Made by a program: the position numbers. DNA of 28,831 bases from the IMG/VR virus record IMGVR_UViG_2534681660_000015; one strand, written 5' to 3'. Source of the stretch: a virus (Duplodnaviria; Heunggongvirae; Uroviricota; Caudoviricetes). Below are positions 24,001 through 28,457 of this stretch, piece after piece. Positions within the stretch are counted from its first letter, which is position 1. Every line of letters starts with the position of its first letter.

Positions 24001-27000
24001 AATCATCGGCAAAGCGCCACGCTCCTTAATCTGCTGCAATGCAACAGCATCCTGGCTTTTAGGAGAGAAGTCTTTCAGGCCAAGCTGCTTACGGTAGGCA
24101 TCCCACCAACGGGAAAGAAGCTGGTAACGTCCGGCTGCTGTTGATTTGAGTTTGGGGTTTAGCGTGACAAGTTTGCGAGGGTGATCGGAGTAATCAGTGA
24201 ATAGCTCTCCACCTACAATGACGTCATAACCATGATTTCTGGTTTTCTGTCGTCCGTTATCAGTTCCCTCTGACCACGCCAGCATATCGAGGAACGCCTT
24301 ACGTTGATTATTGATTTCCACCATCTTCTACTCCGGCTTTTTTAGCAGCGAAGCGTTTGATAAGCGAACCAATCGAGTCAGTACCGATGTAGCCGATGAA
24401 CACGCTCGTTATATAAGCGAGATTGCTACTTAGTCCGGCGAAGTCGAGAAGGTCACGAATGAACCAGGCGATAATGGCGCACATCGTTGCGTCGATTACT
24501 GTTTTTGTAAACGCACCGCCATTATATCTGCCGCGAAGGTACGCCATTGCAAACGCAAGGATTGCCCCGATGCCTTGTTCCTTTGCCGCGAGAATGGCGG
24601 CTAACAGGTCATGTTTTTCTGGCATCTTCATGTCTTACCCCCAATAAGGGGATTTGCTCTATTTAATTAGGAATAAGGTCGATTACTGATAGAACAAATC
24701 CAGGCTACTGTGTTTAGTAATCAGATTTGTTCGTGACCGATATGCACGGGCAAAACGGCAGGAGGTTGTTAGCGCGACCTCCTGCCACCGCTTTCACGAA
24801 GGTCATGTGTAGAAGGCCGCAGCGTAACTATCACTGATGAATTCAGGATAGCCAGTGGCTACGGCTCAGTTATGGTGCTGGTTAACGGACTTGAACCGCT
24901 ACCCATTCGCTTACAAGGCGACTGCTCTACCATTGGAGCTAAACCAGCATATTTGGCGGGACAGCGTGGACTCGAACCACGATAAGAAGGTTAACAGCCT
25001 TCCGTAATGACCTTTATACGACTGACCCAAATAAAAAAAGCCACCGTTGCAACTTAAGAGTCACTAACGGCAGCTTATGCGAATAGTGTTGCTCATTTGC
25101 TCAATGATGTCAACACGTTCTATGCTACATGTTTAATTTTCTCTACACGTTTCCGGTTTTTAAACGCACTATCCAGAACCGGGTAAATCATAAACAACGA
25201 GGCATTGAGGATTTCGTCAACTTCCCGTCGACAGGTTGCGAGCGATGGTTTTTGAATGCGCCCGCCGCCCCGGCATAACATCTTGCGAGGTCTTGCGACG
25301 CGATGATAGTAAGATGCAATGGCGTGCTTGGAAGAGCCGTGGGCGTAGTAGCTGAGGAGGATGCCAAAGGCTTTCTTGTCAATGTACATGACGGAATCGA
25401 CGACCTGAGAAATCAACATTCCATCATCATCATTACACATTGGCCTTGTCATAACTCTTCCCGGCTCTACGCTCTCCATGAACTTAGCTATTACGCTGCT
25501 CATGCGCTTTTCCAGACGACCTGAATAAACCCATGCGCCCCACAGTTCAAGCCAGCCATTCAGCCACTCGTGCTGCTCTTTGGTGAGGTTTAGTTCTCTT
25601 ATGCTCATCGTCTTCCCCTCTTGCCTTGTTTGACCATCAGGACGCCGTTAACTATTACGTGACGCTCACCTTTGCTGTCTCGGTTGTACTTGAGCACTGT
25701 TCCTCTTGCGCAGGAAAGCATCCTCGCCACTTCGGTCTGATTGCCTCGTGTCTGGATAAGAAGCTCTGGTATCGTTTGAATTGTGGCGTTCATACGTTCT
25801 CCAGTTCGGTGATTTTTATTCCAAGCCGTCCGCCTGGTACTTTCACACCACGAATTACGCGAATGTCATCGAATTGCTCGTCGTCTTCCGCAAATCCGGC
25901 GTGGATAAGGGAGTCGAGTAAACCTTTCAGGATGTTATCGAGGTCGCGGCGGCGGGAGTCTGGAACGTCTGCGATTACTTTGATGCGGAGTCGTGATTTG
26001 GTGAAAATGTCTAACTTAAGTTGGCGGATGATTTGCTGAACGTCTTTTCGGTATTTCTGGCCTTTATCGCTGATGTAGTATTGGCTTCCTCGTCTTCGCC
26101 AGTAGGTATTCACCGACGGCGGGTATGGAAGCACAAACTGATATTCGTTCATGGCTTAATCTTTCCCTCCTTCAGCAGTATCGCCTGCGTCCTGATCACG
26201 CCTTCGAGGTGGTAAAGTCTGGCGTCTTTGTTGTCGAGATTATGGGTGCGTCGGTCGATTTCATCGTGACACGCGCTACAAGCCCATGCGAGTGATAATT
26301 GGCCACGCATATTCAGGATTATTGCAAGGATTGAAGCAATTTCCGTTGGGATTGGCTTGCGTTTATTTCTGGAGCGTTTCGTTGGAAGGTATTTGCAGTT
26401 TTCGCAGATGATGTCGGTGATACTTCGTCGCTGTCGCCTCATGCCGCCCTCCTGACGCCCTGCCCGATCGCCATCAATGCCGCTTTGGATACGGTAGTAA
26501 ACATCCGTCGAGGACTGATGAACGGTCGCCAAATCAGCAGCATGGAGCCTTTGCTGTTTCCCTTCTTCTCCAACCCTGTCGATGGTTCGATAAAATTAAT
26601 CCGTCCATCAGTGATAATGCGAACTTCGTCGACACTCTCCAGAGCCTTGCTGAACCATCCGACTGACATATCCTCTGGCACAAGCATAACTACCGTCTGT
26701 CGCTGTTGTATGCACTGCTCAGCGGCTTTTTCCACCCACGGCCTGATATTGCTGTACGGTGGGTTATTCCAGATTGCACCGTGGCTTTCCCACTCAGAAT
26801 TGAGCGCGTCGTCGGCCTCAGTTAGCCAGTGAGCACACAGAGCATTTTTGTCGCTCGCTGCCGAATCCAGCCAGAATCCAAACTCAATATCCAGTGCATC
26901 AAAAAGCCAAAGCGGCGTTTGCCAGCAGTCCTTGTCGTGTGCTGGCGTATTTGATTTGATAGTCATGCAGCCTTCCCTTTTCGTTGTGACCATTCATACT

Positions 27001-28457
27001 CTCGCCAGGAGTCATCACTCCACCGCACGTTGCGCTCTGAGCCGAACCAGAACATGATTTCGATAAGCTCAGTCATGTTGGCCTTTCGCATTTTGCTGGT
27101 ACGCACGCCAAGCATGACAACGCCACCGTCGATACCAGGCACACTTCGTTGCTCCAGTTTTTTGGTCTTAAGCCACAGGGCAGTGAACAGGTCTTTCCAG
27201 TCTTCCGGCGCCAACCGTTGACCATGCCATAGCACCTGACGCGAAACATCGTTCAGCATCGGCCACATACGGTCATTCTGCGCTTTGCTGCGCTTGGGTT
27301 CTTTAACGTGGACTTCGTGGGGTGACTTGTCGTCGATGGGTAGTGAGAGAATGGCGTCTATGGCGTTATTTCTGATTGCTTCGTTGCGAAGCAGAAAGGT
27401 TTGCTTCATCTCCTGCTCTCCGGTTCCATTTTTCAGCCGCCGCAGCAACTGATGGTGCCCATGCCCCCCTGGCTTCACAGAGGTCACATTCTGCATAGCC
27501 CCACACATCAATATTTATTCCGGCCTCAACCCACAGACGAGCATTACCGCCGCAAAACGGACATTCTTTTAGCTTTGGCTGGGTTAATGATAGGTCGCTC
27601 ATGCTCACTCCTTCACTTTAAATCCAGACTCCGGATAATTCTGTTGCGCTGAAACTCATTGTTGAGTTTGAACAACCGTCGAAGAACACGGTCACGCGGA
27701 TAGCGTCGTGCGGCAGGGGAATGCTCATACAACTCATCAAGCGGCAAACTGGACGATGAACGATACCGATACCAACGCACCAACTCTTCACGAAAATTAG
27801 CCCTGACAAGCTCAGCTATCGTACTCATTTCTTAAAGCCTCCAATTACTCTTCCCCAAATAAAAAGGCCTGCGATTACCAGCAGGCCTTTATCTTTTTTT
27901 AACACGCTTTCGAGTCCTTTTAGATTTTTCCTTAAGATATTCCGCAAGTTTATCCTCATCATTATTAAATTGAGATAAAAGCTCATGCTCGCAATTAAGT
28001 GCTTTACTCGCATAAGTTCCATATAGTTTCTTTCTTGCTAGTGCTGCTATGAATGCTGCATCTTCTTTGCTATCGAAATACCCTAACGATATTGTCTTAT
28101 TTTTATAACCAACATAAGACTTCCACCTGCCAGTTGTCTTATCCCAAGACACTCCAATCGCACCGGATGTGTTTAACCTATTCCCTACAATGTTTCTTGC
28201 ATTCTGCTCCTCTGTTGCCAGTCTTAGATTTGAAATCCTATTGTCAAGTCTGTTCCCATTTACATGATCAATAAACTTAGGAGGCCATTTTTTGTATACA
28301 TAGAACCAAGCAAGTCTATGCGCATAATACAAAACATTATTTATGCTAATGCATATATAACCACCACTAACACCTCCAGCAATACTACCTTTTACTCTTA
28401 CTACTGAATTTGTTTTTAGCCATTTAAATATTCCTGTTTCTGAGTCATATTGTCAAT

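Follow-up and report, generated by a model that had tools for sequence, protein, structure and literature searches.

A gene for a small Lar-family, putative zinc-ribbon protein (27366-27602) and a gene for an orphan phage N6-adenine DNA methyltransferase, Dam (26439-26966), flank the recombination gene ninB (26963-27409) in the IMG/VR virus record IMGVR_UViG_2534681660_000015. We analyzed the whole 28,831-nucleotide (nt) stretch of this record, here called the window; all coordinates refer to it, and the genes of its nin region are all on the minus strand. We conclude, with a probability of about 0.8, that this region is a standard Shiga toxin (Stx)-type lambdoid nin-region module residing in a P22-like prophage of an enterotoxigenic Escherichia coli (ETEC) strain. 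Within this module, Lar and Dam are neighbors by mosaic history and do not form an obligate functional or co-inherited pair. Three complete E. coli genomes, among them ETEC-2264 and the O114:H49 strain 90-9280, match the final 4.8 kb of the window with 100% identity, and the DNA from 26346 to ~27892 is ~99% identical to more than 100 records of Stx-converting phages (VT2-Sakai, phi24B, the PA series, and AU5Stx1). The Lar-like protein matches H0103 of VT2-Sakai at 78 of 78 residues and equals the product of phi24B lar, which is the gene name used in that phage. RefSeq and GenBank phage records annotate Lar, ninB, and Dam with the same 44-nt overlap that we describe below, and in ETEC-2264 the Prokaryotic Genome Annotation Pipeline (PGAP) names the two products "Lar family restriction alleviation protein" (WP_001281772.1) and "phage N-6-adenine-methyltransferase" (WP_001385994.1). 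The Lar and Dam genes, the overlap, and the REBASE name and published specificity of the methyltransferase are thus all already known. Since both genes are already named in RefSeq, the importance of the region beyond correct annotation is small. Most Stx phages of clinical importance encode a Lar-like protein; the conserved lar/ninB overlap is a clean site for studying translational coupling and allele exchange; and a strong depletion of GATC in the prophage bears on what a GATC methyltransferase does in a phage whose host is itself dam+.

A reading of the sequence alone (the sequence-only reading) had cast Lar and Dam as an anti-restriction pair, and this pairing did not survive comparison with their relatives. 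Salmonella prophage loci have the order Lar-NinB-NinE-NinF without Dam, and two minor Lar alleles in IMG/VR come without Dam wherever this could be tested. Conversely, an Edwardsiella prophage has Dam next to RusA with neither Lar nor NinB, and in Yersinia prophages a Dam homologue closes the early-left operon, not far from the integrase, again without Lar. The Dam family occurs in 1,909 records of the GenBank phage collection (T1-like coliphages, Haemophilus phage HP1, and Vibrio phages). In the same collection, 244 records have a Dam at least 95% identical to ours, and 119 carry the Lar allele of the window, all of them E. coli Stx-type phages. Among IMG/VR loci, the window-type Lar allele is accompanied by Dam in 70 of 72 cases. 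This tight linkage reflects a single, almost clonal Stx-phage block with ~99% identity and not selection for a partnership.

The Lar-like frame, which had been picked out from the sequence as a probable gene, is indeed real. Its 78-residue product passes the cutoffs of two curated hidden Markov models (HMMs), PF14354 (41.2 bits; cutoff, 28.6) and TIGR03655 (62.3 bits; cutoff, 39.6), and matches phrog_599, "Lar-like," at 9.3e-39. Its cysteines C14, C17, C39, and C42 correspond in alignment to the CPFC...CxxC of the Rac prophage protein RalR/Lar, so that the Cys ligands whose absence would have told against the gene are in place, and W59-N-R-R aligns with the C-terminal W-N-[KR]-R of RalR. In a pairwise comparison, the two proteins are 36% identical over 58 residues (E = 9e-10). 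With NF007260, the equivalog model for RalR itself, the protein scored 27.6 bits, far under the cutoff of 113. The frame is open from 27366 to 27608 if a GTG start is used, and this was the start proposed earlier. The stop at 27366 stands, but the start is more likely the ATG at 27602, because an AAGGAG Shine-Dalgarno sequence lies 5 nt upstream of it, RefSeq and PGAP choose it, and this ATG and its ribosome-binding site (RBS) are kept across alleles.

The 3′ end of the Lar gene and the 5′ end of ninB overlap out of frame by exactly 44 nt (27366-27409), in agreement with the first estimate of about 44 nt. The overlap had been thought unusual; it is not, since it is conserved across Lar alleles and is present in RefSeq phage records. 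The ninB Shine-Dalgarno sequence (GGAGAGCAGGAG) and ATG are encoded within the Lar codons for R-R-A-G-D-E. NinB, an Orf-family recombination mediator of 148 amino acids, matches PF05772 (7.1e-49) over profile positions 1-131. A different reading of the same DNA is that the Lar-like frame arose by chance and that ninB truly starts upstream, at the TTG at 27511. The window does hold a 182-residue open reading frame (ORF) with this start, and the GenBank record of phi24B annotates a long NinB of 181 amino acids. However, the Pfam NinB profile begins at its position 1 at the ATG at 27409, and in three other alleles the ninB frame carries stop codons 5-8 codons upstream of the ninB ATG. The Lar frame, by contrast, stays open and keeps CPFC and CxxC in the other alleles despite ~50% nucleotide divergence, and it scores above both curated HMM cutoffs. 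Given the stops upstream in the ninB frame of the three other alleles, we rejected the 182-residue, TTG-start "long NinB" as spurious and take the Lar frame to be the coding one; a chance Lar frame is extremely improbable.

Conservation of the overlap extends well beyond close relatives. The Lar protein of Salmonella prophages is only ~50% identical to ours in the zinc-ribbon body, but its C-terminal tail (NRRAGDEANLSASQRSNQK) is identical, and its gene likewise overlaps ninB by 44 nt. A word-indexed homologue search with the Lar-like protein gave 6 proteins, and we therefore took allele diversity from a flank-anchored pattern scan of IMG/VR DNA instead. Aligned at the DNA level, Lar alleles have near-identical flanks, while an interior of ~150-170 nt is only ~50% identical. 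The 5′ flank is AAGTGAAGGAGTGAG(C/T)ATGAGC, which holds the Lar RBS and start, and the 3′ flank runs from TGGAACCGGAGAGC(A/G)GGAGATGAAGCAAACC onwards. A scan with this two-flank pattern found 98 loci, which together with the Salmonella allele fall into four Lar alleles, deeply diverged from one another, and two ninB alleles. In all four Lar alleles, the codons for the C-terminal W-N-R-R-A-G-D-E contain the ninB Shine-Dalgarno sequence and ATG. The Lar frame ends 44 nt into the ninB allele that begins MKQTFLLRNEAIRNN... or 29 nt into the ninB allele that begins MKQTIFLRSKQ.... The lar/ninB overlap is therefore a conserved design, as expected of a lambdoid mosaic junction, and translation of ninB is probably coupled through it to translation of lar.

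These flanks raise the idea that the lar-ninB junction is a dedicated allele-exchange cassette, in which diverged Lar alleles are swapped by homologous recombination while the ninB lock is kept. Its boundaries would be a conserved stretch of ~22 nt with the RBS and start at one end and the block of W-N-R-R-A-G-D-E and the ninB start at the other. We consider a dedicated cassette unlikely. If it were true, it would imply that Lar proteins are fast-evolving specificity determinants of counter-defense, or partners of a recombination module, rather than having a single role in "EcoKI alleviation"; Rac Lar, which is encoded beside recT, is a parallel for the recombination-module partner. What we do observe is that the lar-ninB junction behaves as an allele cassette with fixed flanks, each allele being kept overlapped with ninB; we found no published description of this behavior, and regard it as mildly new, a small extension of well-known lambdoid mosaicism. 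Besides the window-type allele, the conserved flanks are shared by those of the IMG/VR loci L062 (3300048928_000088) and L085. The L062 allele has only three cysteines (CPFC and one further Cys, with His residues nearby), and the C4 ligand set is therefore not universal in the Lar cassette. Six IMG/VR loci, L100 among them, have a frameshifted Lar: in one, Lar and NinB form a single ORF of 212 amino acids, and in the other five Lar ends at 56 amino acids. These versions are either sequencing errors or natural inactivation.

The methyltransferase gene has an intact reading frame as well. The frame is open from 26439 to 26993 (184 amino acids), and its true start is the ATG at 26966, giving 175 amino acids: this ATG overlaps the ninB stop in an ATGA, homologues begin with MTIKSN or MTLKSN, and TIGR01712 aligns from residue 2. 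The sequence-only reading was thus right about an N-P-P-Y (NPPY) N6-adenine methyltransferase and wrong about its start, which it had placed at 26993. Dam covers positions 1-165 of the 165-position TIGR01712 equivalog with 264.4 bits (cutoff, 97.05) and matches PF05869 with 219 bits (cutoff, 28.1; 3.5e-65). In an alignment of 30 homologues with 58-98% identity, the NPPY motif (N68-Y71) is invariant, and so are F31, L33, and D34, the last being the conserved acidic residue of the strand that binds S-adenosylmethionine (SAM). Some 40-odd further positions are invariant in this alignment, and the window protein has all of them. An AlphaFold 2 (AF2) model built on the same alignment was confident, with a predicted local distance difference test score (pLDDT) of 85 and a predicted template-modeling score (pTM) of 0.84, and this model places Dam in the class I SAM-dependent methyltransferase fold. 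We had considered that the enzyme might be catalytically dead or might have lost its motif; with the HMM cutoffs passed, NPPY present and invariant, and a confident model resembling N6-adenine methyltransferases, Dam is not a dead copy.

A Foldseek search of the PDB with the Dam model gave as its top match the cap-specific N6-adenosine methyltransferase CAPAM/PCIF1 (E = 1.5e-4; TMq, 0.58), followed by TrmM, KsgA/DIMT1, and E. coli Dam. The nearest solved structure is thus a eukaryotic mRNA cap enzyme and not a bacterial DNA methyltransferase. A PDB sequence search with Dam gave no match, and neither sequence search nor close fold match found a structure of the PF05869 family in the PDB. E. coli host Dam, an alpha-class enzyme (PDB 2ore and 4rtl), presumably makes the same G(m6A)TC product as the window enzyme, and both have a Rossmann-fold SAM methyltransferase core; it is a weak match to the model (E of ~0.04-0.1) and has no significant sequence similarity to the window enzyme. 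Host Dam is 278 amino acids long against 175 in the window enzyme, which differs further in its motif order and in having no separate DNA-recognition domain. A "prophage-encoded rRNA methyltransferase" of Stx phages (PMC10810198) is another protein; it is an MT-A70/DPPW protein (gp5) encoded elsewhere in the phage.

The closest characterized relative of the window enzyme is the dam product of VT2-Sakai, M.EcoVT2Dam, with which it shares 174 of 175 residues (99.4%), the position between ninB and ninE, the NPPY motif, and orphan status. The sole difference is V60E in the window copy, at a variable column of the alignment; downstream, the window differs in that its ninE is truncated and fused to ybcO. 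A passage in PMC6602927, citing Radlinska & Bujnicki 2001, describes M.EcoVT2Dam as an orphan methyltransferase "known to target 5′-GATC-3′," and PMC7556043 has it among the listed phage Dam-like enzymes. With this near-identity and the literature, we infer that the window enzyme makes G(m6A)TC. The family of M.EcoVT2Dam (TIGR01712/PF05869) includes the Dams of 933W, phi24B, Haemophilus phage HP1, and T1-like phages; the HP1 enzyme is 38% identical to ours over 148 amino acids, and those of T1-like phages are 32-35% identical. As had been noted at first sight, there is no cognate endonuclease: the annotation of the prophage lists no restriction endonuclease, and its only nucleases are RusA, homing-type HNH/AP2 proteins, and a 3′-5′ exonuclease. 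The "orphan" label is therefore correct. Dam homologues elsewhere, in the Edwardsiella and Yersinia prophages, are likewise solitary. The same prophage has a second solitary "DNA-methyltransferase," WP_032243331.1, outside the window (NZ_CP023349.1, 2657332-2658060; 6333-7061 of L112). It sits in the early-left operon with an anti-RecBCD protein, a Rad52-family recombinase, a single-stranded DNA-binding protein, and another HNH endonuclease.

What a phage gains from such an enzyme is less clear, and PMC7556043 calls the part played by phage Dam enzymes poorly understood. Dam may not serve mainly against restriction; it could instead keep rapidly replicating or recombining phage DNA fully methylated at GATC, so that under-methylated genomes are not nicked or killed by MutH and methyl-directed mismatch repair, or it could tune regulation and lysogeny. 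We give this appreciable weight, though somewhat short of even odds. Of the 256 tetramers, GATC is the most under-represented across the prophage portion of the window (7800-28400), with 36 sites observed against 103.8 expected from a Markov model (z = -6.7). In the nin region (25120-27828), there are 2 against ~11 expected, while the non-phage left part of the window is far less depleted (18 against 26.8 expected). GATC is avoided here even though the phage has a gene for a predicted GATC methyltransferase of its own. Counter-selection of GATC in enterobacteriophages has been attributed to mismatch repair (Deschavanne & Radman 1991 and McClelland 1984, as cited in a passage of PMC5014478). 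But the same depletion is equally expected if methylation-sensitive restriction enzymes that cut GATC are the selecting force, and a link of the window Dam to MutH is hypothetical. The genomic setting points toward DNA metabolism: Dam sits among the recombination genes ninB and rusA, and the Edwardsiella homologue adjoins RusA in the absence of Lar. Furthermore, host Dam is reported to be essential for stable lysogeny of 933W, with the phi24B Dam suggested as a supplement (PMC3342100), and reviews hold that many phage orphan methyltransferases may regulate the replication cycle, as in pac cleavage of P1 (PMC12707154). A role in mismatch repair or lysogeny and protection from GATC-cutting enzymes are not mutually exclusive.

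For Lar, the closest known counterpart is Rac Lar/RalR (b1348). The two proteins belong to the same Pfam/TIGRFAM family, are 64-78 amino acids long, and have CPFC...CxxC and W-N-[KR]-R, and the gene of each adjoins a phage recombination gene (recT in Rac, ninB here). The two differ in that the window protein falls under the equivalog cutoff, is encoded in the pR nin operon and not early-left, has a C-terminal tail dictated by the overlapping ninB sequence, and comes without a detected RalA small RNA (sRNA). Rac Lar alleviates EcoKI restriction, which is "believed" to occur via enhanced de novo methylation, with the mechanism given as unknown (PMC3177214). Rac Lar is the only member of the family for which alleviation of EcoKI-type restriction and enhanced modification are known (King & Murray 1995, as cited in PMC3177214 and PMC4041452). 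By homology to Rac Lar, the window protein would probably alleviate EcoKI-family restriction too. Lambda Ral is alike in this presumed function: it is a functional analogue that acts on HsdM (PMC12707154), is expressed delayed-early, and alleviates type IA restriction of phage DNA by enhanced de novo modification (PMC12707154, PMC3177214). The analogy is functional only, since Ral gave no sequence match in the searches run, and ral lies in the pL operon. The window has one EcoKI site only, too few to judge avoidance of type I sites.

In 2014, RalR was also reported to be a DNase that cuts DNA whether or not it is methylated and that the sRNA RalA neutralizes (PMC4041452). Being of the same family and 36% identical, the window protein might then be a small nonspecific DNase toxin of a type I toxin-antitoxin pair. 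Yet an Rfam scan of 24000-28831 found tRNAs only and no RalA-like RNA, and blastn of Rac ralA against the window gave only chance matches of at most 13 nt, none of them within the Lar gene. The score with the RalR equivalog model falls far short of its cutoff, and in hundreds of functional Stx phages the gene is embedded and translationally overlapped in a lytic-cycle operon, where an unneutralized toxin would be out of place. A toxin of this kind is quite improbable here, and we return to Lar as a modulator of restriction.

The time of expression limits what Lar and Dam could protect. A bidirectional hairpin resembling an intrinsic terminator (27863-27890; 10-bp stem, T-runs on both strands) lies directly upstream of the unit DUF7301-Lar-ninB-Dam, within the block shared with Stx phages. 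Further upstream, IS100 (istA/istB; minus strand, the same orientation as the operon) occupies 28517-28831 and continues beyond the window (10518-12319 of L003); its insertion separates the nin region from the replication genes (DnaB-like helicase). With this terminator and IS100 upstream of the nin genes, expression would be delayed-early and dependent on antitermination, and Lar and Dam would then work on phage DNA during replication and in the progeny rather than on the incoming genome. The earlier suggestion of early-expressed protection does not fit this arrangement, as delayed-early products would come too late for the infecting molecule. The predicted timing fits better with "modification enhancement" and "export" protection than with immediate anti-restriction. 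For phi24B, lysogen cultures yielded the Dam protein, and induction brought a significant change in the level of its transcript (PMC3342100).

We propose the following scheme. Lar, ninB, and Dam would be three independent small genes, co-transcribed from pR after antitermination through the terminator at 27863-27890. Their translation would be linked by coupling, through five ATGA junctions and through the ninB RBS and ATG inside the C-terminal codons of Lar. NinB would serve as a recombination mediator. Lar, a putative C4 zinc ribbon, would most probably modulate type I restriction-modification of the EcoKI family so that methylation is favored over cleavage, as the homology to Rac Lar suggests, and would thereby bias resident type I enzymes towards modification. 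Dam would be a minimal SAM-dependent orphan enzyme that makes G(m6A)TC without a separate target-recognition domain, and it may top up GATC methylation where phage replication outpaces host Dam. Of the functional account first drawn from the sequence, the gene identities hold. Its anti-restriction part is not established by what we found, since for Lar it draws on 36% identity to Rac Lar/RalR and the family HMMs, and for Dam it is one of several roles.

Several observations weigh against this scheme. The AF2 model of the Lar-like protein, made from a shallow alignment of 4 sequences, is too poor to show a zinc-ribbon fold (pLDDT, 54.8), and in favor of such a fold a PDB sequence search with the protein gave marginal, weak matches to the zinc ribbon of eL43 (E = 0.009). 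With the RalR equivalog score so far under its cutoff, the function of the window protein may differ from that of Rac Lar. A Lar homologue of phage Bas63 was of conditional importance even where the host had no intact type I system, as though it countered something else (PMC11482910), and the targets of the Lar family may thus reach beyond type I systems. The predicted GATC mark of Dam would duplicate that made by a dam+ host, which makes any gain against restriction in E. coli hypothetical. Finally, given IS100 and a fusion of NinE to YbcO, this particular prophage may be in decay, and expression of the genes may be low.

This fusion occupies the place between Dam and RusA where NinE had been read. 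There is indeed a frame here that is ATGA-coupled to Dam and RusA (26149-26442), but it is not an intact NinE. It is a deletion fusion of 97 amino acids that joins NinE residues 1-34 in frame to the C-terminal half of YbcO/DUF1364 (Pfam NinE, 1-34 of 58; YbcO, 47-91 of 92). In relatives, the order Dam-NinE-NinF-hypothetical-DUF1364-RusA spans 838 bp at this place, as against 294 bp here, a difference of ~544 bp. PGAP calls the region two pseudogene fragments, and the fusion occurs in 3 of 5,426 complete E. coli genomes. The coupling of the operon is as tight as first described: all five junctions from ninB to Q (NinB/Dam, Dam/NinE fusion, fusion/RusA, RusA/NinH, and NinH/Q) are 4-nt ATGA overlaps. 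The fusion is followed by rusA (25790-26152), ninH (25605-25793), and the gene for the Q antiterminator (25120-25608), recognized by the Pfam models RusA, Phage_NinH, and Phage_antitermQ, respectively. IS100 may be polar on expression of nin and Q, and the prophage may be partly defective.

At the other end, the first gene after the terminator encodes a DUF7301 protein (27613-27828; PF23975, 3.8e-26; phrog_1785, function unknown) and lies 10 nt upstream of the Lar start. The terminator region also has a weak, sub-threshold Rfam match on the plus strand to the sRNA STnc370 (28 bits against 54). Next to the terminator is a continuous minus-strand ORF of the homing-endonuclease type with a TTG start (27889-28332; 147 amino acids; HNH_3 and AP2), where PGAP instead annotates two features, an "AP2 domain protein" and a partial pseudogene of HNH type. 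This ORF is not part of the Stx-phage block, which ends at ~27892. Between the Q antiterminator and a lambda-type holin, genes for tRNA-Thr(TGT) and tRNA-Asn(GTT) are located at 24873-25028 on the minus strand, the position where Stx phages have tRNAs and the stx genes.

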